NCBI GenBank assembly: GCA_030583725.1
Contig: CP129472.1
Coordinates: 64,286 to 128,285, forward strand
Reading direction: 5' to 3'
Length of the DNA stretch: 64,000 nucleotides
Source: a bacterium
Lineage (GTDB): Bacteria > Patescibacteriota > Microgenomatia > UBA8517
The notes beneath the pieces are model-generated. The model saw only the letters and a program-made list of their open reading frames with translations. It did not search any database and was not told the origin of the DNA. Below, in pieces: positions 11,585 through 57,386 of this stretch (position 1 is the stretch's first letter; each line of letters begins with the position of its first letter). The translations under genes were made by a program, and so were the position numbers.

Positions 11585-12170
11585 GTGCCTGTTTATAATT
11601 TAGCGCGAACCTATTTTACAACAAATTTCTAATTTGTGCTGAGCAACAAGGGAGGGGTTAAAGGGGAAGGAATTGTTGCGAAGCTCGGGTTTCCTCGCTC
11701 AGCCACTTCGTGGCTTCGCTAACACAACCTGCAAAGCTCGAAGCTTTGCGCTCACCCCACTTTGTGGGGTTCGCTAACCCAATTTAAAGGAAAAGGGGAT
11801 TATTTATAGTTCCACTTCGTGGAACGGTACTGTTACGGTATCCGTAAGGTACTTAATCAATACCGTTGACTAGTCGTATTTTCGACCCTTTTGCCGTTTA
11901 ACGGTCCGTACGGTCGGTTAACGGCCACCGTTGGGGTAAGGCTGAACACAAAAACTAACCCATTTCAGTCGCAATTTGCCCTAAAGGGCAACTTACCCAA
12001 GTGCTAAAAGACAAAAACTGGTGCTTATGCACAGCACTTGGTTAGGAAGCTACAAGCACACACACATTGCTCCTGAAATATTCCCTTTACGGGGAATCCT
12101 GCCCAACACAAAGACACTCCAAAGCTACAGGGGTGTTGGCTTCCGCCATGTGCAGGGCAGGAAGAACAAA
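11585..12170 (-). ncRNA. Structured RNA-like element, copy A: a ~380-nt hairpin-rich module (about 12170->11809) contiguous with a 200-nt inverted-repeat arm (11784->11585). Unclassified large ncRNA candidate.
   Basis: Three diverged copies in the window share an ordered set of hairpins with compensatory changes: a closing helix CUCCUG/CAGGAG; CCUGCCC/GGGCAGG; H1 UGGC-GGAA-GCCA (A) vs AUGGC-GUAA-GCCAU (B) vs UUGGCC-AAA-GGCCAA (C); H2 AUUCCC-loop-GGGAAU; a CCAAGUGCU...AGCACUUGG helix enclosing GUGC-AUAA/GUAA-GCAC; H4 UUGCCC-UUUA-GGGCAA vs UUGCC-UGUUAAG-G(U/C)AA. G-U wobbles are only valid on this strand. Confidence 0.5.
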
Positions 12171-12216
12171 CAAGTGGTGGTTTTGTAAATCCTCTAGTAA
12201 TATAATTCAGTTTAGT

Positions 12217-13362
12217 ATGAACAAAAATGACCAGTGGGACAAACTTCATAAACATTATAAAAATCAAGATTGGATTGAAAAGCCAAATATCTTTGCAGAA
12301 GAAGTATTAGAGTATTTACCAAATAATGGAAAAATACTTTGTTTAGGAGATGGGCAAGGACAAGACGGAAGATTTTTTGCAATTAAGGGATATGAAGTAA
12401 CCTCAGCAGATATTTCAGAAGAGGCACAAAACATAAACAAAGAAAAAATAAAAGTGCAGGGTTTAAAAAACATTTCAGTTGAAAGATTAGATTTAAGAGA
12501 AAGGTTTCCGTATTATGATGCAAGTTTTGATGTTGTGTATGCACATTTGTCTCTACATTATTTTTCTGAAGAAGTAACAAAAAGTATTTTTAAAGAAATC
12601 AAAAGAGTACTAAAAGGTGGTGGAATACTTGCAGTATTTACAAACTCAGTTAATGACCCTGAGTTTAACACGGGGAAAAGAATAGAACAGGAACTATTTG
12701 AGATAGAAGGTATACAAAAAAGATTTTTCTCAAAGTATTCAATGGATTATTTTGCACAAGATTTTCAGGTAGTTCTTTTGGATGACAACGGAAAGACATA
12801 TAAAGATGAAGCAAAAGGAGTGCACAATTTAATTAGATTTGTTGGTAAAAACTATGCTAGAAGAAATAACCAAATTGCATTACCTTTTGTATCAGCAATT
12901 GTAGAAAGAGAAAATAATGGAGAAAAGGAAGTTTTAATTCAAACAAGATGGAGACCAAATGCAGAATGGAATTATCACAACACTATTGAAATTCCTGCAG
13001 GCGTGTTAGATAAAGGGTATGAGAATGTACTTGATGCAGTTAAAAGAGAAGTTAAGGAAGAAACAGGACTTGATGTCACTGAAATTGTAGGTTTAGAAAA
13101 AACTGATATTCACTCTCCAAAAGATGATGCTTCATATGCTTTTAAACCTTTTGCTTGTTCACAACAACTAAAAGCAGGACTTCCTTGGGTTGGATTTTGT
13201 TTTGTTTGTAAAGTAAAAGAGGGAGAAACTAAACAACAAGAAGATGAGACGAGAAATGTTAGATGGGCTAAAAAATCAGAACTCAAACAAATGATTAAAG
13301 AAACTCCAGGTAAATTCTTTACCTTGCATTTAGGAGTTTTAGAAATGTATTTAAAAGATTAA
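12217..13362 (+). CDS. Class I SAM-dependent methyltransferase fused to a NUDIX hydrolase domain
   Basis: Likely start at the ATG at 12217 (MNKNDQW...); the track ORF 12067 start would run through the RNA element. Motif I 'ILCLGDGQGQDGRFFA'; NUDIX box 'GVLDKGYENVLDAVKREVKEETGLDV'. Confidence 0.7.
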   Translation: MNKNDQWDKLHKHYKNQDWIEKPNIFAEEVLEYLPNNGKILCLGDGQGQDGRFFAIKGYEVTSADISEEAQNINKEKIKVQGLKNISVERLDLRERFPYYDASFDVVYAHLSLHYFSEEVTKSIFKEIKRVLKGGGILAVFTNSVNDPEFNTGKRIEQELFEIEGIQKRFFSKYSMDYFAQDFQVVLLDDNGKTYKDEAKGVHNLIRFVGKNYARRNNQIALPFVSAIVERENNGEKEVLIQTRWRPNAEWNYHNTIEIPAGVLDKGYENVLDAVKREVKEETGLDVTEIVGLEKTDIHSPKDDASYAFKPFACSQQLKAGLPWVGFCFVCKVKEGETKQQEDETRNVRWAKKSELKQMIKETPGKFFTLHLGVLEMYLKD

Positions 13363-13364
13363 CT

Positions 13365-13691
13365 ATGAAAAGAATAAAATTTGCTCCAAATTTAGTACAA
13401 CTAGTTCTTGATGGAACAAAAACTTCAACTTGGAGATTGTGGGATGACAAAGATTTACAAACTGGAGATATCGTTGAATTCGTAAATGCAGAAACGCTTG
13501 AAGTATTTTCAAAGGCAGAACTTACAAAAGTAATAGAAAAGCCCTTTAAGGATTTAACAGACGATGAAAAAGAAGGACATGAGAAATATATTAACACAGA
13601 AGAAATGTCTAAAAAATTTGAGGAATATTATCACAAGCCTGTTGATGAAAATACTTTATTTAAAATAGTTCACTTTAGACTCATTAAATAA
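13365..13691 (+). CDS. ASCH (PUA-like) domain protein
   Basis: 108 aa. 'KFAPNLVQLVLDGTKTSTWRLWD...GDIVEF' resembles the ASCH domain. Confidence 0.5.
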   Translation: MKRIKFAPNLVQLVLDGTKTSTWRLWDDKDLQTGDIVEFVNAETLEVFSKAELTKVIEKPFKDLTDDEKEGHEKYINTEEMSKKFEEYYHKPVDENTLFKIVHFRLIK

Positions 13692-13693
13692 CA

Positions 13694-14269
13694 ATGAAAG
13701 AATTTGTAGGTATCTTGGCAGTTATTTTAACTTTTGTAGGTTATGCGCCATACATTTGGGATACTGTAAAAGGTAAAACAAAACCTCATATTTATAGTTG
13801 GTTCACTTGGGCCTTTGTCACTTTTATTATTTTTGCTCTTCAAATTTTTGGCAAAGGTGGTGCTGGTGCATATACAACTTTAGCAACAGCAATTCTTTGT
13901 TTAATAATATTTTTATTGGGCTTAAAAAATGGCAATAAAGATATAACAAGATTTGATACTGTAACTTTTATAATCTCACTTATAGCAACTGCAGTGTGGA
14001 TTTTTGCCAAGCAACCAATAATTTCAACTTTCTTGATTGTTACAATAAATACTTTAGCAAATTTACCAACTATTAGAAAATCTTGGAATGATCCACATTC
14101 TGAAACTTTATTTACATGGCAAATGGGTGCTGTCCGTAATTTTTTAGGAATAATTGCTCTCCAAAATTATTCAATACTAACATGGTTATATCCTGTTACT
14201 AATTTAATAATAAACATCATTGAAAGTTGTATTTTGATAATTAGGAGGAAACAATTAAAAAACATATGA
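13694..14269 (+). CDS. Integral membrane protein (about 6 TM), hypothetical
   Basis: Multiple hydrophobic segments; 'WNDPHSETLFTWQMG'; start codon 3 nt after the upstream stop. Confidence 0.5.
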   Translation: MKEFVGILAVILTFVGYAPYIWDTVKGKTKPHIYSWFTWAFVTFIIFALQIFGKGGAGAYTTLATAILCLIIFLLGLKNGNKDITRFDTVTFIISLIATAVWIFAKQPIISTFLIVTINTLANLPTIRKSWNDPHSETLFTWQMGAVRNFLGIIALQNYSILTWLYPVTNLIINIIESCILIIRRKQLKNI

Positions 14270-14772
14270 TGTATGTTAAATACTACGAAAAAGAAATCCC
14301 AGACAAAGGGATGGGTGTTTTTGCTTCTGAATTTATACCAAAAGGAACATTAATTTGGAAACTTACTGAAACTAAAAAGTTTACAAAAGAAGAATGGGAA
14401 AAGTTACCCCATGAAATTAGAAAAGATGCATATCCAGACAGTGATGGTAATTTTGTGGCTGCAGTTGGTAAAGGAGAATCATGGAATCATAGTTGTGACA
14501 CTAACACTTGGTGGACAGCAGATGATGAACTATCAGCAAGAAGAGATATACAAAAAGATGAAGAGCTAACATATGATTATGCAACTTCAGACATTGATGA
14601 AACTAAAGGGACAGATGTTGCTTACGATTGGGAATGTAAATGTGGTTCAAAAAACTGTAGAAAGATTCTTCATTGGAATGACATTTTAGAACCAGAAATC
14701 TACAACACTTACAAAGGTCATTTACCTAGTTGGGTGGAGAAATTTGTAAAGGAACATAATAAAAATATATGA
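14266..14772 (+). CDS. SET-domain protein (putative protein lysine methyltransferase) with a post-SET Cys cluster
   Basis: 'GMGVFASEFIPKGTLIW', 'NHSCDTN', 'EELTYDY', post-SET 'ECKCGSKNCRK'. Confidence 0.7.
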   Translation: MMYVKYYEKEIPDKGMGVFASEFIPKGTLIWKLTETKKFTKEEWEKLPHEIRKDAYPDSDGNFVAAVGKGESWNHSCDTNTWWTADDELSARRDIQKDEELTYDYATSDIDETKGTDVAYDWECKCGSKNCRKILHWNDILEPEIYNTYKGHLPSWVEKFVKEHNKNI

Positions 14773-15761
14773 ACAACCTAGACGTATTGATTAAAAGAAC
14801 AAATTTAAATATTTCATTTGATGAATTTTTGAAAGATATTGAAGGTAAATTTACATCAATAGGAAAAATTGGAAATTATTCTCCGATCAATGAAGGATAT
14901 GAAGATGCAAATATTATTTTAAATACTTCAACTGGTAAATATGTTTTAAAAATATTTTTAGCTGAAAGAGAATTAGGAAACATAAACAGCTATGTAAAAA
15001 TACTAACTGAATGTAAAAAAGTTGGAGTACCAACTACAGAAATACTATTAGATTTTAATAATGGACTTGGTGTATTTGAAAATGAAGGTATAAAAACATA
15101 CTACATAATTACAAAGTTTTTTGAAGGTAATAACTTTCAGAATACTACTCCAACAATTGAAGATATAAGAAAAGTTACCGAGTGTGTAGCAAAATTAAAC
15201 ACTTTAAATTTCGAAGTTGGAGAGGGTTATGATTCTTGGGGAATTAAAGCATTTCCTGAAGAGTATAAAAATAAAAAAGAAAAATTAACTCCTGAACAAG
15301 ACTCATTAATCAAAGATATTTATGAAGAATATCTGAAGTTAGACATGACTAGTTTTAGTAAGTCAGTTATCCATGGAGACATGCAAAGAAAACATGTTAT
15401 CAAAAATAGTAACAACGAATATTGTATTTTAGATTTTGGTTGTATGGCGTATGACTACAAAGTTATTGAGTTAGCAACCTATCTTGCTTGGTTTTGCATA
15501 CAAAAAGATACTTGGAAAGATAAAGATTTAATCTATAAAGAGGTATTAGATATCTACAATTCAATACACCATCTATCAGAGCAAGAGATATTATCACTTC
15601 CTCTTTTAATTAAAGTTTCTTGTTCTGCATATTATGTGACAACTTCTGTGATGATAAATGAAGGTGATACTAGTGAAGAAACACTAGATTGGCACAATAG
15701 ATCAAAGAAGCTGTTGGAATTATCTAAAATATCGATATCAAACTTATCTACTTTGGGGTGA
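14769..15761 (+). CDS. Protein kinase-like phosphotransferase (APH / homoserine kinase II fold)
   Basis: 'VIHGDMQRKHVIKN' (H-x-D...N catalytic loop) and 'ILDFGCMAY' (DFG-like). Confidence 0.6.
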   Translation: MNNLDVLIKRTNLNISFDEFLKDIEGKFTSIGKIGNYSPINEGYEDANIILNTSTGKYVLKIFLAERELGNINSYVKILTECKKVGVPTTEILLDFNNGLGVFENEGIKTYYIITKFFEGNNFQNTTPTIEDIRKVTECVAKLNTLNFEVGEGYDSWGIKAFPEEYKNKKEKLTPEQDSLIKDIYEEYLKLDMTSFSKSVIHGDMQRKHVIKNSNNEYCILDFGCMAYDYKVIELATYLAWFCIQKDTWKDKDLIYKEVLDIYNSIHHLSEQEILSLPLLIKVSCSAYYVTTSVMINEGDTSEETLDWHNRSKKLLELSKISISNLSTLG

Positions 15762-16721
15762 ATGAATAAAAGATATATTTTTGAAGTTAATATTAAAGTT
15801 GAGCAAAGTAACTTCTGTATTGAGGATTCAACTATTAACGATTGGAGATTTTTTTGGACGAACGATAACGTTTGTGCCATCATATCTGCGACTAAATTAT
15901 TTAGCGGAAATGGACAAATGACTGATGGATTTGAATATTTAAATACGCCAGATAAATTAGGTTTGTTGATTGATTGTATAAGTTTTATTACAGACCTACC
16001 GGTTTCCTGTAAAGTAGACTTCCGACTTTTTCGTGTAGATGATAATAACAAAATTAACATTTTAGACTTGACAACACCATTTACTAAGCTATTGCAACAA
16101 GCCAGAAGTAATAAATTATTACAACATGGTAGTAGCGTCGACGAGTGGCCTATTAGGGTTAGTCCTGGAATTTCGCACAACTTTAGAAGCAAAGATATTA
16201 GTTTCATTCGACATCTATTTGTGCTAATTTCAAAAATACGAATAAAAAACACTTCAATTAAACTGTTAAATTATTGGAGAAAAGGATTTGACCTCGACGT
16301 GCTAAATTATTGGGATGAGAGCTTCTTGGTATTTTTTAAGATTCTTGAGTATTTCGACAAAAGATATCAACCTAATAATAATTTGTATATTGATAATAAA
16401 ATAATGAAAGCAAAATCAGAGATTTCCAAAAAAGCTTTAAGGATAGCTGGTGGCGCAGAATCTACTAAGCCAAGTAAGTATCTAATAAAACTGATTTCTG
16501 ATTTCATCGAAATAAGAAATAATTCAGACATTGCACACATGCGTATAAAACCGCTACCTAAAGATAGGAATGGTGCCTTTTATTTTACATCCTATTTAAA
16601 TATTTGGGACACACATGATGATATCAAAGAATTAGCAAGGCTCTTTGTTTATAAACAACTTGGTATTAAAGGTTTACAATTAAGGAATGATGGTGGTTTG
16701 TTTAAGTTAACAACGATTTAA
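15762..16721 (+). CDS. Hypothetical protein (319 aa)
   Basis: ORF in the same operon (start 1 nt after the upstream stop); no recognised motif. Confidence 0.45.
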   Translation: MNKRYIFEVNIKVEQSNFCIEDSTINDWRFFWTNDNVCAIISATKLFSGNGQMTDGFEYLNTPDKLGLLIDCISFITDLPVSCKVDFRLFRVDDNNKINILDLTTPFTKLLQQARSNKLLQHGSSVDEWPIRVSPGISHNFRSKDISFIRHLFVLISKIRIKNTSIKLLNYWRKGFDLDVLNYWDESFLVFFKILEYFDKRYQPNNNLYIDNKIMKAKSEISKKALRIAGGAESTKPSKYLIKLISDFIEIRNNSDIAHMRIKPLPKDRNGAFYFTSYLNIWDTHDDIKELARLFVYKQLGIKGLQLRNDGGLFKLTTI

Positions 16722-16723
16722 TT

Positions 16724-17362
16724 ATGAAAACACTTAATGTCTTCACAAATGAAAAAGGAGAATTTGGAAATCCTGTAGGAATAATTGTTGATTCCGAAAA
16801 CAAGATAGATGATAAAAAACGTCAGCAAATGGCAATTAATAGTGGTTTTAGTGAAATTGTGTTCATAAACAATCTTGAAACAAAAGATGTAAGTATCTTT
16901 TCTCCAACAAGACAAATTCCATTTGCTGGCCATGCTTTAGTTGGAACAAGTTACTTTTTTAACAATGTTTTAAATTTACCTACAATTGAAATTATAAGCA
17001 TGGGTAAGGTTATTAAATCATGGCAAGAAAACAAATTAACTTTTGTAGAAGCTGATCTTTCAATTTTACCTAATTGGAATATAAAAGAATATAAAACTCC
17101 AGAGGAAATAGAACAAATTACAATCCAAGAAGCTTCAATTTTAGAACACACTCTAGTTTGGTGTTGGATAGATAAAGAGAAAGGATTGGTTAGGGCTAGA
17201 ACATTTGCTTCTGACTGGGATATCCCAGAGGATGAAGCAAATGGATCAGGAGCAATGAAACTTGCAAGTTTAATTAATAGAAATCTAATCATTCATCATG
17301 GAAAAGGATCAGTTATTCATTCAACTCCAAGTTCAGTTGGTGGGTTAGTAAAACTAACCTAG
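16724..17362 (+). CDS. PhzF/YddE-family isomerase-like protein (short, 212 aa)
   Basis: 'EFGNPVGIIVD...NSGFSEIVFI...SPTRQIPFAGHALVGTSYF' matches the PhzF family N-terminal half. The 3' end abuts/overlaps the inverted-repeat arm. Confidence 0.55.
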   Translation: MKTLNVFTNEKGEFGNPVGIIVDSENKIDDKKRQQMAINSGFSEIVFINNLETKDVSIFSPTRQIPFAGHALVGTSYFFNNVLNLPTIEIISMGKVIKSWQENKLTFVEADLSILPNWNIKEYKTPEEIEQITIQEASILEHTLVWCWIDKEKGLVRARTFASDWDIPEDEANGSGAMKLASLINRNLIIHHGKGSVIHSTPSSVGGLVKLT

Positions 17363-17384
17363 TTTTGTAATAACAACAAAACAC

Positions 17385-17584
17385 AATTGGGTTAGCGAAC
17401 CCCACAAAGTGGGGTGAGCGCAAAGCTTCGAGCTTTGCAGGTTGTGTTAGCGAAGCCACGAAGTGGCTGAGCGAGGAAACCCGAGCTTCGCAACAATTCC
17501 TTCCCCTTTAACCCCTCCCTTGTTGCTCAGCACAAATTAGAAATTTGTTGTAAAATAGGTTCGCGCTAAATTATAAACAGGCAC
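17385..17584. repeat. 200-bp inverted-repeat arm A' (exact reverse complement of 11585..11784)
   Basis: Read by eye as an exact 200/200 reverse-complement match to the arm adjacent to ncRNA copy A. Internal hairpins GCAACAA..UUGUUGC, GCCAC-UUCG-UGGC, GCAAAGCU-CGA-AGCUUUGC, CCCCAC-UUU-GUGGGG. Confidence 0.85.
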
Positions 17585-17647
17585 CCAACCCCGACCTGTC
17601 GGGGTCGAGCGAAGCGAAGACCACGACATTTGCCCATCCCCTCGGAC
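17582..17647. repeat. ~65-bp inverted repeat IR65a (left arm, upstream of recombinase 1); partner at 19179..19244
   Basis: 'cacccaaccccgacctgtcggggtcgagcgaagcgaagaccacgacatttgcccatcccctcggac' is the reverse complement of 19179..19244; contains the palindrome CCCCGACCTGTCGGGG. Confidence 0.8.
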
Positions 17648-17693
17648 GAAAACAACACAAGACAAAACAAAAAAGTTGATATTATTTGATGCC

Positions 17694-17723
17694 TTGATAT
17701 GGATTATTTACGGGCGTATAAAT
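17694..17723 (+). promoter_or_regulatory. Sigma70-like promoter for recombinase 1: TTGATA - 17 nt - TATAAAT, start codon ~7 nt downstream (leaderless)
   Basis: TTGATA at 17694-17699, 17-nt spacer, TATAAAT at 17717-17723. The same 30-nt sequence 'ttgata(c/t)ggattatttacgggcgtataaat' is conserved upstream of all three recombinase genes. Confidence 0.65.
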
Positions 17724-17729
17724 GATATT

Positions 17730-19355
17730 GTGAAGCACAATATTGTAAATAATCCATTACATCCAAAATTCTTCCTCTACGCAAGAAAGTCTACAGATGT
17801 AGAAGATAAACAAGTGCAGTCTATTGAGGGTCAGCTTCAGGAGTTACATGAACTTGCTAAGAGAGAAAATTTAATCATTGTAGATGAATTCATTGAAAAA
17901 CAATCTGCCAAAACTCCCGGAAGGTCAATTTTTAATAAAATGTTGGATTCTATTGAACAAGGTCATGCAAATGGAATTCTCTCTTGGCATCCTGATAGAC
18001 TAGCAAGGAACTCTGTAGACGGCGGAAGAATTATTTACCTATTAGACACAGGTAAATTGTCTGCCCTCAAATTTAATACCTTTTGGTTTGAGTCCACTCC
18101 ACAAGGAAAGTTTATGCTGTCAATTGCGTTTTCTCAATCTAAATATTATGTAGATAGTTTAAGTGAAAATACTCGTCGTGGACTCAGGCAAAAAGCTAGA
18201 AATGGATATTCTCCAACTGTTGCTCCGCTTGGTTATATAAATGATATTAGAAGTAAAACTGTTGTTCTTAATAGAAAATTAAGTCCAATTGTTCAGGAAG
18301 CTTTTGAAAAATATAGTGTTGGGAATATCCTAATGAAAGATGTGTCTAGCTTTTTGGCAAAGAATGGGATTCTTAACCCAAATGGTAAGAAATTTGATTT
18401 GAATAGAATAAAAAGACTTTTAACCAATCCATATTACTGTGGATATTTTGTATATGGTGGAGAAGTGTATGAGGGCAGACACGATCCAATAATTTCAAAG
18501 AAACTTTTTGACAAAGTCCAAGATGTAATGAGTGTTAGAAATCACTCTTGGAAAAATGCAAAAGTAGAAAAGATTTCTAAACCCTTTGATGGACTTCTAA
18601 GGTGTGGTGAGTGTGGCATGATGATTTCTCCTGATTTTAAAGTTAAACATTATAAAAATGGTACTTGTGGCTACTTTAATTACTATAGATGTACAAAAAA
18701 GAATAGAAGTATAAAGTGCCGACAGTCTCATATTAGAGTGAGTGGTTTAGAAAGCCAACTCATCACACTTGTCAAAAAATATTCTTTGAAAAATGATTGG
18801 GCTATAAAAATGAACGAGAAACTTGATGAAGAACAAAAGGATATAGCCCAATCAATCCTTCCTGTTGTTGCAGAAAAAAGGAAAGAAATTGAAAGCATTA
18901 ACACTAAACTCCAACTTCTTCTTGATACTTATTTAGATCAGACAATTGATAAAGAAATGTATAAGGTTAAGAAGTTGGAGCTTTTTTCCAAAAGGAAAAC
19001 TTTTGAAGAACAAATTCTTTCCTTGCAACAACATAAAGGAAGTTGGATCGAACCTATGCGAAATTGGATATCTGAGGCTAGGGAAGTAGATCAAATAATA
19101 TCAACTAACAACAAAGAACAATTAAAGGTCCTCGCGAAGAAAATCTTCGGCTCGAACCTTTACCTAGAGAACAAAACAGTCCGAGGGGATGGGCAAATGT
19201 CGTGGTCTTCGCTTCGCTCGACCCCGACAGGTCGGGGTTGGGTGGACCTAGGGAGAATCGAACTCCCGTTACATGACTGCCAGCCACGTGTCCTACCATT
19301 GAACGACAGGCCCCAATACTTTGAGATTCCTCTGTGTGGACCCTGCAGGACTTGA
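17730..19355 (+). CDS. Large serine recombinase 1 (resolvase catalytic domain + recombinase domain + zinc ribbon + coiled coil)
   Basis: 'FFLYARKSTDVEDKQVQSIEGQ' (catalytic Ser), 'WHPDRLARN', zinc ribbon 'LRCGECGMMISP...YRCTKKNRSIKC'. Probable GTG start at 17730; the track's N-terminal extension covers the promoter. No stop until 19355: the C-terminus ('GDGQMSWSSLRSTPTGRGW') is encoded by IR65a' and the frame reads on antisense through tRNA-Ala. Confidence 0.85.
   Translation: MKHNIVNNPLHPKFFLYARKSTDVEDKQVQSIEGQLQELHELAKRENLIIVDEFIEKQSAKTPGRSIFNKMLDSIEQGHANGILSWHPDRLARNSVDGGRIIYLLDTGKLSALKFNTFWFESTPQGKFMLSIAFSQSKYYVDSLSENTRRGLRQKARNGYSPTVAPLGYINDIRSKTVVLNRKLSPIVQEAFEKYSVGNILMKDVSSFLAKNGILNPNGKKFDLNRIKRLLTNPYYCGYFVYGGEVYEGRHDPIISKKLFDKVQDVMSVRNHSWKNAKVEKISKPFDGLLRCGECGMMISPDFKVKHYKNGTCGYFNYYRCTKKNRSIKCRQSHIRVSGLESQLITLVKKYSLKNDWAIKMNEKLDEEQKDIAQSILPVVAEKRKEIESINTKLQLLLDTYLDQTIDKEMYKVKKLELFSKRKTFEEQILSLQQHKGSWIEPMRNWISEAREVDQIISTNNKEQLKVLAKKIFGSNLYLENKTVRGDGQMSWSSLRSTPTGRGWVDLGRIELPLHDCQPRVLPLNDRPQYFEIPLCGPCRT
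19179..19244. repeat. IR65a' (right arm); encodes the recombinase 1 C-terminus and abuts the tRNA-Ala 3' end
   Basis: Reverse complement of 17582..17647. Confidence 0.8.
19243..19313 (-). tRNA. tRNA-Ala (anticodon GGC)
   Basis: Manual cloverleaf: acceptor GGGCCUG/UAGGUCC with the G3:U70 Ala identity pair, anticodon loop CUGGCAG, T-arm GGGAG-UUCGAUU-CUCCC, discriminator A. Convergent with, and overlapped by, the recombinase 1 ORF. Confidence 0.8.
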
Positions 19356-42486: not shown

Positions 42487-42495
42487 ATAATTTTA

Positions 42496-42888: not shown

Positions 42889-42890
42889 TA

Positions 42891-43712: not shown

Positions 43713-43721
43713 TATGTAACA

Positions 43722-47314: not shown

Positions 47315-47478
47315 GTATCCTTAACAGAACATTCAACTAATTAAGTGCTTTTTGTAATTGTTGTACAAAAGTTAATCTAACTTTCATTAAACATTTATTT
47401 CCCTGCGATGTCAACAACGACTGCGTTGAAGGAGTAAATCAGATAGGTTTCCGATTTTACCCATATTTTTAGTAGATT

Positions 47479-48105
47479 TCAACTTTTTATTGTACTTTTA
47501 TCAAATGCAATTTTTACGGCTTCATCTTCGTAAATAGGTTCTTTGGTTTCTGGAACTCTATAACTATGATCTGCATTTTTAATTTCAAAATAATTTATAT
47601 CTTTTGAAACTGCCGTTTTTAAATCATTTTTAACAACCTCTATGTTTCCAAACTTGTCTTTCTCACCTTGAATAATATCTATTTTTCCTTCAAAAGTTTT
47701 TAAATCTATACTTCCTGTAACATATCCAAAAACTATTGCTGAATATTTTGATTGTTCTTCTTTCGGTAACGATTTTAGATAATAACTAGCAATTATTGCT
47801 CCTAGTGATTTTCCTATTAACCTAACATGTTTATACTCCTTTGCTCTACACTCATCTAAAATAGATCGTAATGTTTCTAGTTCTTCTTTTAATTCTGGTC
47901 CTGAAGATTGTTCTTCCCCTCTTTCATAATATGGAAAATTAAAATTAACTACTGAATGGCCTTGTTTTACACATTCATCAAATATCATTTGCATCAACGA
48001 ATAATTCATGCCACCTGAACTACCATGAAGTAAAACATCTAGAGTGTCTGATTTGTTACTTACAAATTTTAAACTTGGGATATCCATTTTAATTATTTTA
48101 AACAA
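47479..48105 (-). CDS. Alpha/beta-hydrolase
   Basis: Nucleophile elbow 'GKSLG'; 208 aa. Confidence 0.6.
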   Translation of the reverse strand: MFKIIKMDIPSLKFVSNKSDTLDVLLHGSSGGMNYSLMQMIFDECVKQGHSVVNFNFPYYERGEEQSSGPELKEELETLRSILDECRAKEYKHVRLIGKSLGAIIASYYLKSLPKEEQSKYSAIVFGYVTGSIDLKTFEGKIDIIQGEKDKFGNIEVVKNDLKTAVSKDINYFEIKNADHSYRVPETKEPIYEDEAVKIAFDKSTIKS

Positions 48106-49120: not shown

Positions 49121-49166
49121 TTATTTTCCTTAGAAATCGATTATACTATATCAGTTAACCAAAAAT

Positions 49167-50381: not shown

Positions 50382-50388
50382 ATATATT

Positions 50389-51462
50389 ATGTTGGACTTA
50401 TCAAGTGATATATTTTCGGGAAAATATTTACCTTCACAATGGGAAAGAAAAGAAATAGACGTGAGTAAATATGAAAAAGCATTAAATATTATTTGTCCAA
50501 ATATGGATATATTGGGTCAATTGACAAGAAGTACTAACACTGTATCTTTTGTGTTGAAAAGCTCACAAAAATTATTCGTATGCCAATTTGCACCTCCAAA
50601 TTTAACCAAAGTATCTAAATTTGAAGAAAAGAACAACCCAAACAAATTTCAAGGTGCTCAAGAACGTATGGCACACCTAAATGAGCATAAAATATCTGTG
50701 CCTGAAATAATATTAAAAGGAGAAACAATAATCGACAGCCAAAAAAGACAATACATTGTAATGAATTTTGTTGATGGGATAAGTGCTGACCGTCTATTAG
50801 CAAGATCGCCTGAATCCAGATTAACTATATATCATGAGTTTGGTAGAATTTTATCAAAATTGTCGACTGTTCCAATCATTGAGCCTGAGAATAGAACTCC
50901 CTCAAAAATTGTATTAGATAAAGTTAATCACGCTGCAAAATATATTTTAAACAGAAAAATTATATCTCAAGATCAATTTGATAAATTAATAATGTTAGTA
51001 AATGCTCGACTAACAATACTAGGTGAGATGCCTCTGGCCTATGTTCACTTAGATCCTTCTCCAACCAATTTACACATAAAGATTCAGGGCACAAAACATG
51101 TAACAACATTAATGGATATTGAAGCAATTCAAATTGGACATCCAATTATTGAAGGACTAGGTCGAGCAATCATGACTGGTATCTATGATTGGAGTTATAT
51201 TACAAACGGAAATACCGATGAAATTCAGTCCAATGTAGAATCATTTCTTAGTGGATATTCTGAGATGTCTTTATATGCAAAAAGTTTACTAAGATCGAAA
51301 AAAGATTTTGAATGGCTATTACAAACTTGTCGAATTATACATTTACCTCAATCAATCATGTATGAAGACAAAAAAGACACATCTTTATTTAATCCAGACG
51401 ATATATCGTTTAATTGGAGTATCGACACCTTACAGAAGCTAATAACAGGTAACGAAAAATAG
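50389..51462 (+). CDS. Kinase-like phosphotransferase (APH/CotS family)
   Basis: 'YVHLDPSPTNLHI' catalytic loop, 'LMDIEAI' DxE/DFG-like. Confidence 0.55.
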   Translation: MLDLSSDIFSGKYLPSQWERKEIDVSKYEKALNIICPNMDILGQLTRSTNTVSFVLKSSQKLFVCQFAPPNLTKVSKFEEKNNPNKFQGAQERMAHLNEHKISVPEIILKGETIIDSQKRQYIVMNFVDGISADRLLARSPESRLTIYHEFGRILSKLSTVPIIEPENRTPSKIVLDKVNHAAKYILNRKIISQDQFDKLIMLVNARLTILGEMPLAYVHLDPSPTNLHIKIQGTKHVTTLMDIEAIQIGHPIIEGLGRAIMTGIYDWSYITNGNTDEIQSNVESFLSGYSEMSLYAKSLLRSKKDFEWLLQTCRIIHLPQSIMYEDKKDTSLFNPDDISFNWSIDTLQKLITGNEK

Positions 51463-51477
51463 AAGTTGACAAAATAT

Positions 51478-52605
51478 CTATTTAAGAAGTTCTTTTATTT
51501 TTTCTATTGCAAGATCTACTCCATTACCACCCAACGAATCTATATAATCCTTACCTTTTTTCACCATTTCATTGGACCATTCATTTCTATTTTTTACAAG
51601 ATCATTAAGTTCTAAACCAATTTTACGCTGAACATCTTCAGATTTTTCTAAAAGTCGTAGTTGTTCAAGTACCAGTCTCATACTTTCCTCCCCTGGAAGA
51701 TGAAGTAAATTAAGTTCAGGGAAAAACTCTTTAAGATGGACTGATGCTTTTGCTAAACCAAGACCATTAAAACCATCTAATTGTATATATTGACTGTCGT
51801 TTGATGGTGGCAAATAAACTACAGGCGTTTCAGTGTAAAATGCACCCCTTGCAGTTATCAGACCTGGGGTGATAAGTATAACTTCAGATTGGGACATCTC
51901 ACTTACAAATTTGTCATGTGCAAGAGTAGTAAACTCAAAAGGTGTATTTGCGAATCTTTTTTTAAGTTCTTCAACTGTTTTTTCATTTGTTGCAAGAATC
52001 ACACGTTCAAAATCTGACCAATCAACATATTTTGAAAGAATATCTGTCATTACAAAGGGGAAATTGGTATCCTTTCCAACTTTGTACACATGGGTTGCTT
52101 GCGCACCTCCAAACGAAATGAATGCTTGTTTTTTTCTAGGTAATTTTTTAGATTTGGCCATAATTGGACCGACAGTTAATAGGTTTTTAATCTTGTCGAC
52201 ATAAAGATTGTCATTTGCACTGGAATAAAATGTTCGTTCACGAATATAAAGGTCAACATCAAAAAGTTCATCTGAAATGGATGGCCAAAACCAGAACAAA
52301 ACGTCCTCATATATAGTAATTTTGTTATGCTTCTTAGCAATTTTTATACTTGCAAGGTCCATACAACTAACTACTGCGTCACATTTAGATATAATATCTT
52401 CAAGCTTGGATAGATTTTTAGGATCTTCTATATCAAGTTCATAAACTTCATTAAAGGGAAATTTTCTAGCCAATTGAAGCGATGTTCCAAAACCTACAAA
52501 AATTAATTCAAAATCTTTAGTATTTCTAAATTCTTCAATAAGATATAGTAATGGACCCACTGAACCGAAGGCAAAATCTTGAGCTGTAAAAACAATCTTC
52601 ATCAT
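51478..52605 (-). CDS. GT-B fold glycosyltransferase-like protein (MGT/UDP-glycosyltransferase-like), tentative
   Basis: Two-domain Rossmann-like pattern; 375 aa. Confidence 0.4.
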   Translation of the reverse strand: MMKIVFTAQDFAFGSVGPLLYLIEEFRNTKDFELIFVGFGTSLQLARKFPFNEVYELDIEDPKNLSKLEDIISKCDAVVSCMDLASIKIAKKHNKITIYEDVLFWFWPSISDELFDVDLYIRERTFYSSANDNLYVDKIKNLLTVGPIMAKSKKLPRKKQAFISFGGAQATHVYKVGKDTNFPFVMTDILSKYVDWSDFERVILATNEKTVEELKKRFANTPFEFTTLAHDKFVSEMSQSEVILITPGLITARGAFYTETPVVYLPPSNDSQYIQLDGFNGLGLAKASVHLKEFFPELNLLHLPGEESMRLVLEQLRLLEKSEDVQRKIGLELNDLVKNRNEWSNEMVKKGKDYIDSLGGNGVDLAIEKIKELLK

Positions 52606-52647
52606 GATGTAGTATTATACTACTATCAGGCACAAAATGTTTAACTT

Positions 52648-53508
52648 ATGAAAACTATTAATTATTCTAAGCAAAGCGCTTTAGGTTATGCTGGTTTAGC
52701 TTTGCTCCGAAACTGGCTAATCGGCAAAAGTTCTTCAATTACTTCGATATTTAATGAAATATCGAATCTCGCAGAAAACCAAGCCGACACACTAGAAGTA
52801 ACAGATATAAAAACAAAGGCAGTTGAACATAATATCGAATCTGGTTATAAAATATGGTCCAAAATATACGATACCGAAGAAAACATATTAATTGAGATTG
52901 AAGAACCAATTGTCAAGAAATTATTAGAAAAATATCCGACAGGAAAAGTAGTTGATCTAGGATGTGGAACTGGAAGATATAGCCTATATCTTAATTCACT
53001 TGGCCATTCTGTTACTGGAATTGATATCTCTGAAGATATGATAAACATAGCTCGATCAAAAAACAAAAAGGTTAAATTCCTTCAAGGAGACATGAGAAAG
53101 CTTCCATTTAATGATAATGAATTCGACTTTGCTATTTCAGGTTTAGCGATACACTATGTAAAAAATTTAGAGGAAACAATAAAAGAATACTCAAGAGTTT
53201 TAAAGCCTGGTGGAAAACTAATTATCTCTAGCATTCATCCTTGGATGGTTGCATTAGGAGTGCATGCCGAGTTCCATGATAAGAAATCTGGATGGGGCTT
53301 TATTAGAGACAGTATCTTATGGCACAGTTCATACATTGAAGCGTTTAATAAAGCATCGTTGCAAATTGTACATTGTTATGAACCTAAAATAGAATCTAGC
53401 CATATTAAAACTTTACAAAAATGGTCAATACTCAGTCCTAAAACATTATCATCAGCATTAAAGGGATTACCAGTTGCTATAATTTGGGTTCTTAAAAAAA
53501 ATAAATAA
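52648..53508 (+). CDS. Class I SAM-dependent methyltransferase
   Basis: 'VVDLGCGTGRYSLYL' motif I, 'LKPGGKLII'. Confidence 0.7.
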   Translation: MKTINYSKQSALGYAGLALLRNWLIGKSSSITSIFNEISNLAENQADTLEVTDIKTKAVEHNIESGYKIWSKIYDTEENILIEIEEPIVKKLLEKYPTGKVVDLGCGTGRYSLYLNSLGHSVTGIDISEDMINIARSKNKKVKFLQGDMRKLPFNDNEFDFAISGLAIHYVKNLEETIKEYSRVLKPGGKLIISSIHPWMVALGVHAEFHDKKSGWGFIRDSILWHSSYIEAFNKASLQIVHCYEPKIESSHIKTLQKWSILSPKTLSSALKGLPVAIIWVLKKNK

Positions 53509-55055
53509 TGATGAAACACAAAGAAGCACTCACCCAAAAAAGTAACGATTACTCATCACTTGAAAAAGAGTATTTGAAACTCACAAGATCAGAATTACTA
53601 GATCCATTTTCTGTTCCGCCAGATATAAAGATCAATGAGGATATGACAGCTACAATCATAATTCCTGGAAAGAATGTTGAGCCATCGATTCTTGCCTGTC
53701 TTGTGGCAATTGAGCAAAGTAGCTTCAATATTAAGTATCCAGAAAAATTAGAAGTTATATTTATTGATGATGGCTCAAATGATAGAACATGGGAAATTAT
53801 TAATAATAATGATCTTGCATTGAATCTTGTTGTAATAAAGCAAAAACATTCAGGCCAATCACGTGCACTTAATACTGCAATTTCTATTGCTAAAAATAAA
53901 ATTATTATTTCTTGTGATGCAGACATGATTCTTTCTTATTACACAATTGAACAGTTAATGATAAGGCACCAGCTGTTTCCAAATGTCTTGTTAGCAGGAT
54001 TTCGTTCAGAAGTATCTAAGGACGACCCACGAGTTGATCCTAAAAATATAAGGCATTTGGGATTACACAGATATCCGACTCTGACAACTGATGAGAGGAT
54101 AGTATTTTCATCATCAGGTTATCCGAACAATATGTGCTTAGCAAGTAATCATTATAAAGATTTAGGGCACTTAAATGGGCTCTGGATGCGTAATACTAAT
54201 GATCCTTGGTTAGTTTCTGATCTAGTTTTTGGTGCACTTTTTAGCCTTCCAAAAGAAACTTACAATGAAATAGGTGGATTTGAGGAACGATTCATTGGTT
54301 ATGGTTGTGCTGATGGTTATGTAGCCTCAAAGGCTATTTCTTTAGGAAAATTCATCTTGCCTGTCTACTCTGCTACAGGATTACACATTAGTCACTCATC
54401 GAGGACAGAAGATAAATTTAGTGAATACTTAAATAATCGACGTATGTTTTACAAACTGATAGAAGAGACCGAAACAAATGACTTTATGAATTGGATAGAT
54501 AAACCAAAAGATCATATTATTGAGCAAATACACAAGAAACCTGCACTTATTAGAATATCAAATAATGACGCTTCCATTAAAACGAATGTTCCTAGAAACT
54601 TAGAAATCGATACATTATTAGCCATTGGTCAATTTAACAAGGTAATAGATCATATACCTAAAGATACATCGGATGAGAAGCTACTTTTAAATTTAGGTCA
54701 TGCATATTTAGGTACGGAAAATTACAATGAGGCAGTTGATATTTTTAATAAATTATCAGAAAAATCAAATGACTACCTACTTGGTTTATTTCAATCTCAG
54801 GTAGCAATAGAGAAATTTTCTGATGCTGGAAAAACTTTAGAAAGATATCTCCAAACTATTGAAGTTAATGAAGATATTAGTTATTGGAATAACAATCCAG
54901 AATTTTATATAAAACAAGGAACACTTTTTTATAATCAAAATTTTTACAAGATAGCAATTAGATGCTTTGGGATCGCTTTAGCTAAACAGCCATCTAATAG
55001 TATTGCTTTGGATTATCACGACAGATGTCTTCAAAAACTACAAAAAATTAGTTAG
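53508..55055 (+). CDS. Family 2 glycosyltransferase with C-terminal TPR repeats
   Basis: 'TIIIPGKNVEP...IFIDDGSNDRT' GT2 N-terminal signature; TPR-like C-terminal third. Confidence 0.7.
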   Translation: MMKHKEALTQKSNDYSSLEKEYLKLTRSELLDPFSVPPDIKINEDMTATIIIPGKNVEPSILACLVAIEQSSFNIKYPEKLEVIFIDDGSNDRTWEIINNNDLALNLVVIKQKHSGQSRALNTAISIAKNKIIISCDADMILSYYTIEQLMIRHQLFPNVLLAGFRSEVSKDDPRVDPKNIRHLGLHRYPTLTTDERIVFSSSGYPNNMCLASNHYKDLGHLNGLWMRNTNDPWLVSDLVFGALFSLPKETYNEIGGFEERFIGYGCADGYVASKAISLGKFILPVYSATGLHISHSSRTEDKFSEYLNNRRMFYKLIEETETNDFMNWIDKPKDHIIEQIHKKPALIRISNNDASIKTNVPRNLEIDTLLAIGQFNKVIDHIPKDTSDEKLLLNLGHAYLGTENYNEAVDIFNKLSEKSNDYLLGLFQSQVAIEKFSDAGKTLERYLQTIEVNEDISYWNNNPEFYIKQGTLFYNQNFYKIAIRCFGIALAKQPSNSIALDYHDRCLQKLQKIS

Positions 55056-55806
55056 ATATAGGAATTCCAGTTGGAGTTGTTGTTGATTCTACTGTTGGAA
55101 TTGGAGTCGGTGCAACTGTAGGAACGGGAGTTTCTGTAGGCTTTGGTGTTGGAGTTGTTGTTGGGATTGGTACTGGTGTTGTTGAAAGTACTTCTAGATC
55201 TTGGATATCTTCTACTTCTAACACTTTGTTTTTAGAATCATATGTACCAACTGCAAGTATTCTTTTTCCAACTAGAGTAGAAAGATTAAAACCAACTGGT
55301 ATTTCTAAAGTAACAGCTTCTGTTGATGTGGTGATTAAATAAAATTTAACAGGATTAGTATTTGTTTTTGTTAATGTTCCTTTTAAGGCTGTATCTTTTA
55401 ATAATTCAGGAGTTGGCGTGTTTGTGGGAGTTGTGACTATAGAATTATTAAATTTTATCCAAGGAAAGAAAGTTGGAAGAACTACGCCACCTAAACCAAA
55501 GGCAAGTGAAAAAGCAATTAATGCAACTCCAAAGACTGTAAGAGGTTTCATTCTAAATCTCATATCAATTCCTTCATTTGCCATTATTCTTCTCCACCAA
55601 TACTTAATATATACAAGTGGATTAGTTACTTTTAAATTAACAAGATCAGGAGGGTTAGTTGTATTTACTGAAGTTGGGTTGTTAACTGATACAGATATTG
55701 GCGGTAGTTTTGTTGGATCATCTTTTGCAACAAACTTACCACCACTACCTCTAACTTGTTTCTTTGCATTCTCACTTTTAATTTGACTTAAAATATCATC
55801 CTCCAT
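55048..55806 (-). CDS. Membrane-anchored protein with a Pro/Thr-rich C-terminal tail
   Basis: Single TM; tail 'TPVPIPTTTPTPKPTETPVPTVAPTPIPTV'. Confidence 0.45.
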   Translation of the reverse strand: MEDDILSQIKSENAKKQVRGSGGKFVAKDDPTKLPPISVSVNNPTSVNTTNPPDLVNLKVTNPLVYIKYWWRRIMANEGIDMRFRMKPLTVFGVALIAFSLAFGLGGVVLPTFFPWIKFNNSIVTTPTNTPTPELLKDTALKGTLTKTNTNPVKFYLITTSTEAVTLEIPVGFNLSTLVGKRILAVGTYDSKNKVLEVEDIQDLEVLSTTPVPIPTTTPTPKPTETPVPTVAPTPIPTVESTTTPTGIPISN

Positions 55807-55853
55807 GTTTTTACCTCTAATTAAATATTAGTACTTTGAAAGGCAAACTACAA

Positions 55854-56696
55854 TCATTTATCAAACTTTTTAAATTCAGTTTCACGATCCTCAATTATTT
55901 CATTTACATTACCCCAATTATTTTGAGCTGGTGTTAATTTAAGCAAAACTAATAATCTTAATAAAATTGTTAATCCTAACATTAAGGTAAGCCACAAAAT
56001 AACAGTTGATACTAAAATTTTTACAATAGTAGCTAGGTATTTAAATATAAAGACTTTTTTAGTCAACTCTGGATTGTAAAGTGATATAAATATCAAAGTA
56101 ATTAAAATTACTAATGCTACAATTGAAATTATCAAGATATCCTTAATATTAGCAGATGAGACAACCCCAATTAATTCATAGGCAGATAAACATTCTGATT
56201 TTCCTTGCTTTGATATAACTTTTGATAAATCTCTTTTATTTACAGGACCAAACGATCTTGAATCATTTGAATTTAACCGATTGTCCCCTAGAACAAAATA
56301 TTCATCATTATCTAAAACTACTGATTGGTTATCATTTTCGTGTGCACTTATGTCTAAAAATCCATTTTCGCTAACTATTTTGTCATTAATATAAATTTTT
56401 GAATTAACTATCGTTACCTTTTCATTTGGTAGTCCAATTATTCTTTTAACAAAATCAGCGTTCTCAACACTTGAATCATATTTACTACCATCAAAAGTGA
56501 CAACATCGCAACGATTATAAGACACTAGTCTTCTAACTGAAGAGTAACTATCACGATTACTAAAGTAAGGATTCATTGAATTTCCCATAACATCACCATT
56601 ATCAAAGCCCGATATAAAATATAAACCTATCAATAGTACGATGCCTATCCCACCATGTTTAAGAATATCTAGAAAAATCTTTTCGATTTTCTTCAT
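55854..56696 (-). CDS. lepB: Signal peptidase I (S26) with an extended C-terminal membrane region
   Basis: 'GNSMNPYF' (catalytic Ser), 'GDNRLNSNDSRSFG' (box E). Confidence 0.7.
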   Translation of the reverse strand: MKKIEKIFLDILKHGGIGIVLLIGLYFISGFDNGDVMGNSMNPYFSNRDSYSSVRRLVSYNRCDVVTFDGSKYDSSVENADFVKRIIGLPNEKVTIVNSKIYINDKIVSENGFLDISAHENDNQSVVLDNDEYFVLGDNRLNSNDSRSFGPVNKRDLSKVISKQGKSECLSAYELIGVVSSANIKDILIISIVALVILITLIFISLYNPELTKKVFIFKYLATIVKILVSTVILWLTLMLGLTILLRLLVLLKLTPAQNNWGNVNEIIEDRETEFKKFDK

Positions 56697-56744
56697 AATT
56701 TCAGTTTACTCTTTTGGTTATAAGTTGTTAATCTCTTTTATTGT

Positions 56745-57386
56745 TCTCCTGCCCATGCACATTGGCCAAAGGCCAACCACCCCTGTAAGCTTTGGGGTGT
56801 TTTGTGTTGGGCAGGATTCCCGACAGGGAATATTTCAGGAGCAATGGTTTTGTTGTTTTTGTGTTCTAACCAAGTGCTGTGCCGAAGGCACTTTTGGAGT
56901 TGTTTTCTAGCACTTGGGTAGTTGCCTGTTAAGGCAAATTGCGACTGAAATGACACATTAGAAATCCTTTAAAAATAGGTCTTGTTTAGTTTTTGTGTTC
57001 ATATGTGAACTTGCGGTGACCGCATCCGCAACCGCAGTACCGCAACTCCGCAATATGCCCTATAATACGACACGATTGCGGATTTTATAAAGGTCTCTGC
57101 GGTATACCGCAAGGGCACCGTCAGACACTCGCAAGTGTCTGACTCTACAAATAACCCCTTTTCCTTAAAGTGGGTAAGCGGAAGGCCGAAACGAGCGAAG
57201 CGAGTGGAGGCCTGGAGCGCACACACGATTGGGTTAGCGAAGCTCCGCGAAGCGGAGCTGAGCGAGCAACACGAGCATTCTCCAATTCATTTCCCCTTTA
57301 ACCCCTCTTCTTGGAGAATGCAAACAAAGATGTTAAACTATACATGTTGGCGAAACCAAGTCAGAGCGGTTTGGAAAAGTCGCTCC
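56745..57386 (+). ncRNA. Structured RNA-like element, copy C (hairpin-rich module 56745..~57165 + inverted-repeat arm 57166..57386)
   Basis: Closing helices CUCCUG/CAGGAG and CCUGCCCA/UGGGCAGG (perfect 8 bp); UUGGCC-AAA-GGCCAA; AUUCCC-GACA-GGGAAU; CCAAGUGCU..AGCACUUGG enclosing GUGCC-GAA-GGCAC; UUGCC-UGUUAAG-GCAA; UGCGG-UAUA-CCGCA; GUCAGACAC-UCGCAA-GUGUCUGAC; then the junction 'cuacaaauaaccccuuuuccuuaaag'. Confidence 0.5.

Follow-up and report, generated by a model that had tools for sequence, protein, structure and literature searches.

Large structured RNAs such as ROOL and GOLLD are several hundred nucleotides (nt) long, multi-branched and rich in GNRA-like loops, and they are carried on mobile DNA, often beside tRNA genes, with a function that is not evident from context. 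Serine integrase elements (phiC31 and Bxb1, and the ccr elements of SCCmec) encode a protein with Resolvase, Recombinase and zinc-ribbon domains, keep attP beside the recombinase gene, have attL and attR sites that share few bases with attP, and insert at a fixed point of a conserved host gene. Both sets of features recur in a 64,000-nt stretch of a patescibacterial genome (Microgenomatia, UBA8517; GenBank assembly GCA_030583725.1, contig CP129472.1, positions 64,286 to 128,285 of the forward strand; here called the window), in which an earlier, sequence-only reading had pointed to three diverged copies of a structured, RNA-like unit of ~600 nt. We found that this unit has two parts, a folded module of ~375 nt and an attachment-site arm of ~200 nt, and that it lies at one end of what is very likely a serine-recombinase element. 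The module itself is a candidate for a new folded RNA encoded by the element.

The three units can be aligned end to end, with a mean column identity of 77%. A nhmmer profile found exactly three full copies in the window, at 12169-11586 (-), 38899-39479 (+) and 56742-57374 (+), and three further copies of the arm only, at 17385-17584, 31699-31497 and 41859-41654, which bears out the number and placement of copies proposed before. The modules occupy 11785-12170 on the minus strand (A), 38897-39272 on the plus strand (B) and 56745-57168 on the plus strand (C). Divergence differs by region: between the window copies, the 5' domain (first ~205 nt) is 74-81% identical, the second domain (next ~170 nt) 37-49% and the arm 49-64%, while the recombinases of the three elements share 56-65% protein identity with one another. 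The copies are thus old paralogs and not a recent DNA repeat, in agreement with the initial interpretation. Each copy lies, as had been seen, at the same end of a segment bounded by inverted repeats, namely the end distal to the recombinase, and the repeats (203-218 nt) are 100% identical. All copies are intergenic, and comparison of their open reading frames (ORFs) found none that is conserved; in the alignment of homologs, the AUG that follows AGGAG in the module opens ORFs of only 5-25 codons.

The 5' domain (11959-12167 in A, 38901-39105 in B and 56743-56954 in C) is predicted to fold into nested helices. Its helix P1 (CCUGCCC/GGGCAGG) contains two hairpins, the consensus includes a hairpin UUCCC-GNNA-GGGAA, and a long helix, UAUUUCAG-GA-GCAAU paired with AUUGC-GA-CUGAAAUG around tandem G.A pairs, encloses a long hairpin together with UUGCCC-GNNA-GGGCAA. 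Several hairpins singled out by the sequence-only reading are present, including P2 (AUGGC-GUAA-GCCAU versus UUGGCC-AAA-GGCCAA), P7 (UUGCCC-UUUA-GGGCAA, in copy B UUGCCU...AGGUAA with a G-U pair) and a hairpin of the UUACGG/CCGUAA type. Of the two closing helices it proposed, CCUGCCCA/UGGGCAGG was recovered, whereas CUCCUG/CAGGAG is absent from the consensus fold; CAGGAG pairs instead in the long helix, with CUGAAAUG/AUUGC around the tandem G.A. The junction described as conserved, aaauaaccccuuuucc, is so in only one of the two subgroups of homologs.

Scans with exact motifs retrieved homologs from 12 genome contigs and 48 metagenome contigs, mostly from groundwater; Hainich groundwater (ERZ12926xx assemblies) was the source of most homologs. 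All 60 contigs contain the module, 66 copies of which were detected with a covariance model for the 5' domain. In a MAFFT alignment of 51 homologs, 91.8% of cells were paired and 24 pairs had changed on both sides, compared with 12.2 ± 1.7 in shuffled alignments and 6-12 in slid controls. A model-based alignment of the 5' domain from 61 distinct sequences had 98.5% of cells paired, with 7 double-change pairs versus 2.7 in shuffles and 1-4 in slid controls; among its single changes, 57 keep a wobble pair and 34 give a mismatch, although such an alignment leans toward the structure. The observed covariation values were reached by 0 of 500 shuffles for both alignments, and slid controls were lower by a factor of 3-4. 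The covariation reported from three copies thus extends to many more sequences, and the alignments show conserved secondary structure with covariation above controls, as is required of a structured non-coding RNA. The nested long-range helices inferred here are unlike protein-binding palindromes.

Folding energies separate the two parts of the unit. Module B has z-scores of -6.27 in sense and -5.03 in antisense, far beyond shuffled sequence, whereas its arm (39273-39475) has -0.98 and +0.26, no better than shuffled sequence, and RNAalifold recovered almost no consensus structure from the arm. The description of a structured element of ~600 nt therefore holds for the first ~375 nt, by folding and covariation, and not for the ~200 nt at the 3' end. 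The strand had been assigned from G-U wobbles. Strand-specific features are indeed present, but they reside mainly in the loops: G-U cells exceed A-C cells by only 2:1 (169 versus 85), and the clearest evidence for the strand comes from two variable tetraloops that are G..A in 37 and 32 of the 51 sequences and U..C in none. The covariance model scores 99-229 bits on the sense strand (203, 218 and 229 bits for A, B and C) and 16-35 bits on the antisense strand. Folded single-stranded DNA would look alike in its loop asymmetry and G-U pairs.

Twelve copies lack the first ~70 nt of the module, with the P1-P3 junction, and keep the remaining 5' domain (L129, L143, L146 at 11323-11487, L149, L152, L160, L161, L126, L128, L167, L168 at 1172-1359, and L172; related loci are given by such numbers throughout). 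These copies score 99-145 bits, compared with 175-229 bits for full copies, and their existence means that the P1-P3 region is dispensable. Both elements with inverted cargo (see below) belong to this subclass, and so do elements of the usual orientation.

The second domain (with the terminal hairpin, 11800-11960 in A and 39104-39255 in B; 56953-57149 in C, where it is of the CCGC type) contains 10-13 copies of CCGY or RCGG within 150-190 nt, against a background of 1.1 per kb for each. Usually one RCGG is followed by 4-5 CCGY that are 6-8 nt apart and then by more RCGG and CCGY; in type C an AT-rich insertion lies ahead of the repeats. The variable base switches in concert: modules A and B, like most homologs, have CCGT/ACGG, and C (CCGC 6, CCGT 1) and L115 have CCGC/GCGG. 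A 3' segment, CCGUCAA, can pair with either of two upstream copies of UGACGG, and both alternatives track the switch. One of the four compensatory examples put forward earlier sits in this array, which switches in concert rather than helix by helix, so the apparent compensation would be equally expected from a repeat platform for a multimeric protein or from alternative pairings. The domain ends in the pre-junction hairpin described before, which we found with at least six unrelated stems between conserved GUCAG and CUGAC. Between module and arm there is a promoter-like box, TATAAAT in the subgroup of the window (39250-39256 in B) and a perfect extended -10 sequence, TGnTATAAT, in the other.

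The module matches no described RNA that we searched for. Rfam 15 at gathering thresholds matched only tRNAs in the whole window, and relaxed searches (E<=1 for the window, E<=10 for copy B) gave only chance-level module matches, such as Histone3 at 21 bits (threshold 34); as suspected beforehand, no Rfam family accounted for it, including GOLLD, ROOL, HEARO, OLE, group I and II introns, RNase P, tmRNA and 6S. A sub-threshold group I intron match at 37730-37870, at the 3' end of the arginyl-tRNA synthetase gene (20 bits, threshold 50, E 0.9), is probably due to chance. BLAST of copy B against annotated phage and plasmid collections gave no match; two 15-mers of the module had ~100 and 73 matches in IMG/VR, which is the chance level, and nhmmer found the module in none of these. 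Our literature search found no description of the RNA or of serine-recombinase elements with an internal inverted attP, and a query aimed at Microgenomates came back empty.

Closer inspection of the repeats around each unit revealed an attachment-site layout. The arm, here X, is one copy of a perfect inverted repeat of ~200 nt that flanks a variable cargo and whose internal partner abuts the recombinase gene; a second inverted repeat, Y (66-70 nt, 98-100% identical), flanks the recombinase gene itself. When the junctions are read in the orientation of the arm sense strand, with O as the only stretch common to all sites, each system in the window has three sites: an intact X.O.Y just ahead of the recombinase gene, X.O.D past the module at the distal end, and tRNA.O.Y beyond the recombinase. 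In all three systems the core O is 3-6 nt long and lies at the end of a tRNA gene. The exchange of arms around a common core identifies X.O.Y as attP-like, X.O.D as attR and tRNA.O.Y as attL, and by this relation the window holds three integrated elements. We consider this serine-recombinase element architecture highly likely. Two parts of the sequence-only reading consequently gave way: the arm is not detectably structured and serves as the P arm of an attachment site for the recombinase, present twice as a perfect inverted repeat, and the position near tRNA genes and a recombinase, which had seemed reminiscent of RNAs such as GOLLD or ROOL, reflects that the units are the attR-side ends of tRNA-integrating elements.

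Element A (11582-19244, minus strand; attR side at 11582 and attL side at 19244) lies at the 3' end of tRNA-Ala(ggc) with core CAC. Its distal X, the arm of the unit and the P arm of attR (11582-11784, -), is a 100% inverted repeat of the internal X (17385-17587, +), which is contiguous with Y and the recombinase gene as an attP-like X.O.Y; the internal Y (17582-17647, +) is 100% identical to its inverted partner at 19179-19244, which encodes the C-terminus of the recombinase and abuts tRNA-Ala. Element B (29830-39475, +) lies at the 3' end of tRNA-Leu(cag) with core CACC; its X copies at 31497-31699 (internal, -) and 39273-39475 (distal, +) are 100% identical, and its outer Y (29830-29895, +), abutting tRNA-Leu(cag), is 98% identical to the partner at 31436-31501. 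Element C (39992-57386, +) lies at the 3' end of tRNA-Gly(gcc) with core CGCTCC, and both its X pair (41642-41859, internal, - and 57169-57386, distal, +) and its Y pair (outer copy 39992-40061, +, abutting tRNA-Gly; partner 41578-41647) are 100% inverted repeats.

The arms have further features of their own. The loop of a conserved hairpin in every X arm is a 17-mer, TTCCCCTTTAACCCCTC (11652-11668, 17501-17517, 31567-31583, 39389-39405, 41721-41737 and 57291-57307), and the stems around it swap wholly, from GCAACAA/TTGTTGC to TTCTCCAA/TTGGAGAA. Its reverse complement, GGGAGGGGTTAAAGGGG, is G-rich. The 17-mer occurs 125 times in 112 IMG/VR contigs (L001-L112), which are very large or belong to giant-virus bins; this is ~18-fold more than expected by chance, as calibrated with 15-mers. 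In these contigs it comes after a GGGGAACC-N4-GGTTCCCC hairpin and often directly past a stop codon; a serine recombinase is nearby in none of these contigs, and the short motif alone is shared. GAA-loop mini-hairpins (GCGAAGC) are abundant in the arm.

The recombinase genes lie at 17676-19355 (A, +), 29642-31486 (B, -) and 39817-41496 (C, -). The Pfam triad of Resolvase, Recombinase and zinc-ribbon domains (Zn_ribbon_recom in A) was found directly in A and C; B belongs with them by its 65% amino acid identity to A, with paralogous DNA repeats. Recombinase C has more than 6,500 homologs, of which the best 120 are 56-92% identical and carry source names of Microgenomates-group lineages. Between Y and the start codon of recombinase C there is a promoter-like TTGATA-17 nt-TATAAAT (41505-41534, -), read from the sequence, that ends 8 nt before the ATG and lies in a stretch conserved in A and B; it escaped a scan for consensus promoters, since its second hexamer has no T at position 6. 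The recombinase ORFs run through the outer Y (19179-19355, 29642-29895 and 39817-40061), which encodes a conserved tail, ...RG.G...WS.LR..P..., and past it they read the antisense strand of the target tRNA for another 35-60 residues to the stop codon. The C-terminal tail of the recombinase thus depends on what lies beyond the attachment site.

The element family is common in Microgenomates-group Patescibacteria. The 12 genome contigs with the module come from Microgenomates-group, Woesebacteria and Candidatus Microgenomatus metagenome-assembled genomes (MAGs), together with MAGs titled Gammaproteobacteria, Micavibrio and Saccharibacteria. We detected X and Y pairs also in L151, L156, L145, L134, L143, L157, L139, L161 and L168, with X/Y overlaps of 3-11 nt in L151, L145 and L157 that are consistent with the att layout; elsewhere X and Y overlap by 60 nt (L168) or lie 44 nt apart (L161), and with the 11 nt of L157 these values indicate that the shared core is not always 3-6 nt. 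The outer Y meets the 3' end of a tRNA or tmRNA gene in the window and in 13 further loci (L151, L156, L168, L157, L161 and eight of ten loci found through homologs of the recombinase, 59-92% identical). In L157 (2521-3008) it is the tmRNA gene at whose 3' end the outer Y starts, and in L139 a tRNA-Glu called on the opposite strand overlaps the Y end. All ten recombinase-anchored loci have a tRNA nearby and nine have a Y pair; none was detected in L179, and in L176 the tRNA is ~1 kb from Y.

Insertion is also visible as empty sites. In the related genome L147 a matching array reads tRNA-Leu(cag), Leu(aag), Val, Phe, an element, Gly, Arg and Lys, whereas the array of the window has elements after Leu(cag) and Gly and adjacent Phe and Gly. 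Adjacent Leu(cag) and Leu(aag) in L147 represent the empty site of B, and its tRNA-Gly directly followed by tRNA-Arg that of C, so with elements at different tRNAs of one array each genome shows the empty sites of the other. This evidence is at the level of synteny: the spacers differ and L147 is a different strain. Neither the internal repeat nor the N-terminus of the recombinase is present in the L147 element, which has therefore decayed, while its module is still present. In L356, a recombinase 92% identical to that of C lies at the same tRNA as C.

The arrangement of the window, with regard to cargo orientation, recurs in 19 of 21 elements; in the other two (L143 and L152) the cargo is inverted, so that module, X, Y and recombinase stand in series on one strand. 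Each element has one module, which lies in the cargo segment and is in every case directed at X.O; the neighbouring attP copy ends up at attR in 19 of the 21 elements. In every locus the 3' end of the recombinase gene, and never its 5' end, faces the nearby tRNA, which it abuts in all loci but L176. Near-identical contigs that differ only by orientation were not found; the near-identical contig pairs that do exist differ by an indel in the arm region and not by inversion. Elements also accrete in tandem: in L137 (1257-6367) the X end of one element is directly followed by the Y and recombinase of the next, and a few tRNAs lie between neighbours in L168 (53-10047) and at the B/C boundary of the window (39273-40061). 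Many contigs among L125-L172 start or end inside X, the 9.5-kb L131 is bounded by X at both ends, and for the gene next to X of element A three independent assemblies (L173-L175) stop 52-74 nt past the gene. Contig ends inside X are what any repeat would produce, and short-read assemblies of these genomes are systematically interrupted at the repeats.

Accessory and defence-type genes make up the cargo, and they differ between close relatives. In element C, a gene for a 172-residue staphylococcal-nuclease-like protein (41968-42486) lies directly beside the internal X.O.Y and is 87% identical to its counterpart in L356 (4352-4870; also L358 3820-4338 and L360 8510-9037). In these relatives it is preceded by a small FtsK-gamma-like winged-helix gene that the window lacks; we considered the ORF at 42496-42888 for this role, and the comparison showed that it is not the same gene. 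ARAGORN detected a tRNA-Ser(aga) in the cargo of C (47229-47314) that the Rfam tRNA model does not report at gathering score. In the cargo of L179 (7635-9035), a reverse transcriptase gene occurs together with a bAvd-like gene, a combination that marks a diversity-generating retroelement. Outside the elements, two minus-strand neighbours in the window (60409-61422 and 61424-62491) are paralogous, with an 88-nt stretch that is 70% identical at a spacing of 1024 nt.

As the best explanation of these data, we lean toward the ~600-nt unit being the conserved non-coding end of an integrative element and its module most likely being a folded RNA encoded by the element. The free form would be a circle that two inverted copies of X.O.Y (attP) divide into one segment with the recombinase gene and another with the cargo. 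If the element integrates by way of the copy located 3' of the recombinase gene, that repeat would be split into the X pair and the Y pair, an intact X.O.Y would stay inside, and the cargo could then invert between the X copies. The module would join a conserved 5' domain, whose nested helices include GNNA-type loops and tandem G.A pairs, to a CCGY/RCGG platform, suited to alternative pairing or to binding of a multimeric protein, followed by the hairpin and the promoter-like box. Taken by itself, the claim that the module acts as a folded RNA is probably correct, judging from the fold and its covariation. Such an RNA may serve in cis in regulation or maintenance, controlling transcription into the adjacent attachment site or the use of that site. 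It is the position of the module that favours this role: once per element, pointing into the arm, beside the attP that becomes attR in nearly all elements. It is conceivable, though we hold it only tentatively, that the module belongs to a new class of large structured RNAs, that apart from the protein it is the sole conserved part of an undescribed serine-recombinase family with two inverted attP sites, and that it assists the life cycle as an RNA cofactor, perhaps by choosing the attP copy, setting the directionality of recombination or priming replication of the circle.

Several observations weigh against this explanation. The two longest helices of the 5' domain are invariant across homologs, which is in part a consequence of the search, since exact matches to these motifs were used to collect the homologs. 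RNAalifold retained one helix only in the second domain, where what looks like compensation is the concerted change of a repeated tetranucleotide. Comparison of homologous loci found no conserved promoter upstream of the module, only weak consensus matches, and several loci have just 10-35 nt between the end of a co-directional gene and the module. The promoter-like box between module and arm means that the two may not be one transcript, and together with the lack of a conserved upstream promoter it makes a single discrete 600-nt transcript doubtful. Because GCGAAGC-type hairpins and G.T pairs are also stable in single-stranded DNA, RNA and folded DNA are inseparable by sequence alone. With regard to the circle, look-ups of exact proteins returned contigs that break inside X or nothing, and no circle junction was seen; the recombinase segment was never found inverted among the examined loci, which together with the 19:2 bias of the cargo tempers the case for a free flip-flop. 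Finally, a walk from the ten recombinase-anchored loci toward the module reached the end of the 10-kb flank or of the contig before any module appeared; in most of these loci the cargo or the contig outruns the flank.

The main rival is that the module works as DNA, either as an origin (or a single-strand origin active while the element replicates or is taken up in single-stranded form) or as a region that assists or enhances recombination, with the CCGY/RCGG repeats as iteron-like protein sites or with folded DNA as the active form. This is an unlikely but serious alternative, since the tetranucleotide occurs in both orientations at ~30-fold over background and changes in concert, the repeats of type C are preceded by the AT-rich insertion, no conserved promoter lies upstream, the recombinase is the only conserved protein of the element, and 19 of 21 elements have the module-side attP at attR. 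The GCGAAGC mini-hairpins of the arm point the same way, such hairpins being very stable in DNA. However, the spacing of 6-8 nt is too tight for proteins that bind double-stranded DNA, the nested long-range helices of the 5' domain and the asymmetry of its G..A loops call for a single strand that folds, the cargo has no conserved gene for a Rep protein, relaxase or primase, and the GC content of the module (~0.49, compared with 0.33 in its surroundings) is unlike that of typical theta origins. We consider it improbable that the locus is a programmed inversion switch (phase variation) and the module a leader or upstream region of a box aimed at the recombinase or at genes past the far end (tRNAs, bipA). 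Perfect inverted repeats with an adjoining recombinase and both cargo orientations across genomes are what such a switch would give, as are the extended -10 box conserved in the second subgroup and the co-directional tRNA that follows the arm after ~10-40 nt in element B, L134 and L147 and after a few hundred nt in L150. Yet the orientation is strongly biased with the recombinase segment never flipped, insertion, and not inversion alone, is evident from the short shared core at the ends of tRNAs and from the reciprocal empty sites, and 375 nt of conserved nested structure far exceed the needs of a promoter. We also considered that inversion switches the recombinase on from the module promoter, or that downstream tRNAs need an outward promoter; the former is weakened by the recombinase's own promoter-like element, and the latter by the promoter-like site that tRNA-Leu(aag) downstream of B itself possesses and by the convergent gene that element C faces.

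Two further alternatives are very improbable. Module and arm could form a guide RNA of the bridge RNA or seekRNA type that pairs with the target tRNA end and the donor site, an idea that draws on one RNA-like module per recombinase, a 3' arm identical to the sequence beside the recombinase gene, and related recombinases that use many different tRNAs. When complementarity was tested, the longest identical or complementary runs to the own target (B and D arms) were 6-10 nt, no longer than for non-cognate targets; recombinases 74-92% identical to that of C share the tRNA-Gly target, which fits specificity determined by the protein, and the T-loop and CCA end common to all tRNA targets are readable by a protein. 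As for the copies being non-functional remnants, decaying duplicated ends with incidental hairpins, the L147 element with its truncated recombinase and missing internal repeat carries the module nevertheless. We give this little credence, since the 5' domain is better conserved between the window copies than the recombinases are (74-81% at the nucleotide level versus 56-65% of amino acids), is kept in a subgroup with ~43% recombinase identity and is paired in 98.5% of cells across distinct sequences, and the position and orientation of the module are constant in 21 elements.

If the module is transcribed, it would add a new large structured RNA to the few ornate RNAs of mobile DNA. Its setting is unusually simple, with a single recombinase to which it is tied one-to-one and with defined attachment sites, so that its role can be tested directly; if it acts as an RNA cofactor, it would be the first RNA to partner a serine recombinase system. 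Independent of the RNA question, the layout with an intact inverted attP inside the integrated element stands, as do the targeting of many tRNA and tmRNA 3' ends by serine integrases and the accretion of elements in one tRNA array. Together they account for much of what appears in Microgenomates genomes as inverted repeats, assembly breaks and variable islands. The elements also offer a natural set of serine integrases with related but distinct tRNA targets.

Compared with ROOL and GOLLD, the module matches neither Rfam model even at E<=1, is so far restricted to Microgenomates-type contigs, is tied one-to-one to a serine recombinase element and its attachment-site arm, and has a tetranucleotide repeat platform. 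In contrast to phiC31, Bxb1 and ccr, the elements of the window type target the 3' ends of many tRNAs and of tmRNA, keep a second, inverted and intact attP-like copy inside the element, which produces the perfect inverted repeats of 200 nt and 66 nt, and encode the C-terminus of the recombinase in one Y copy. The Hin/Gin/Cin invertons likewise have inverted repeats flanking a segment, a recombinase gene just outside it and both orientations in existence, but the repeats described here are 10-fold longer, the cargo comprises 1.7-15 kb of unrelated genes with no alternative gene pair or regulated promoter evident, and att-site logic at the ends together with empty sites mark the whole unit as an insertion. 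The yeast 2-micron plasmid (FLP/FRT, 599-bp inverted repeats) differs in using a tyrosine instead of a serine recombinase, whereas the present elements are bacterial and integrate into the chromosome, their circle and any amplification are hypothetical, and no origin or partition genes were identified in them. In design it is nevertheless similar: the predicted circle would likewise be split by two long identical inverted repeats that contain the recombination sites, with the recombinase in one unique segment, two isomers formed by inversion and a key cis element beside one repeat.

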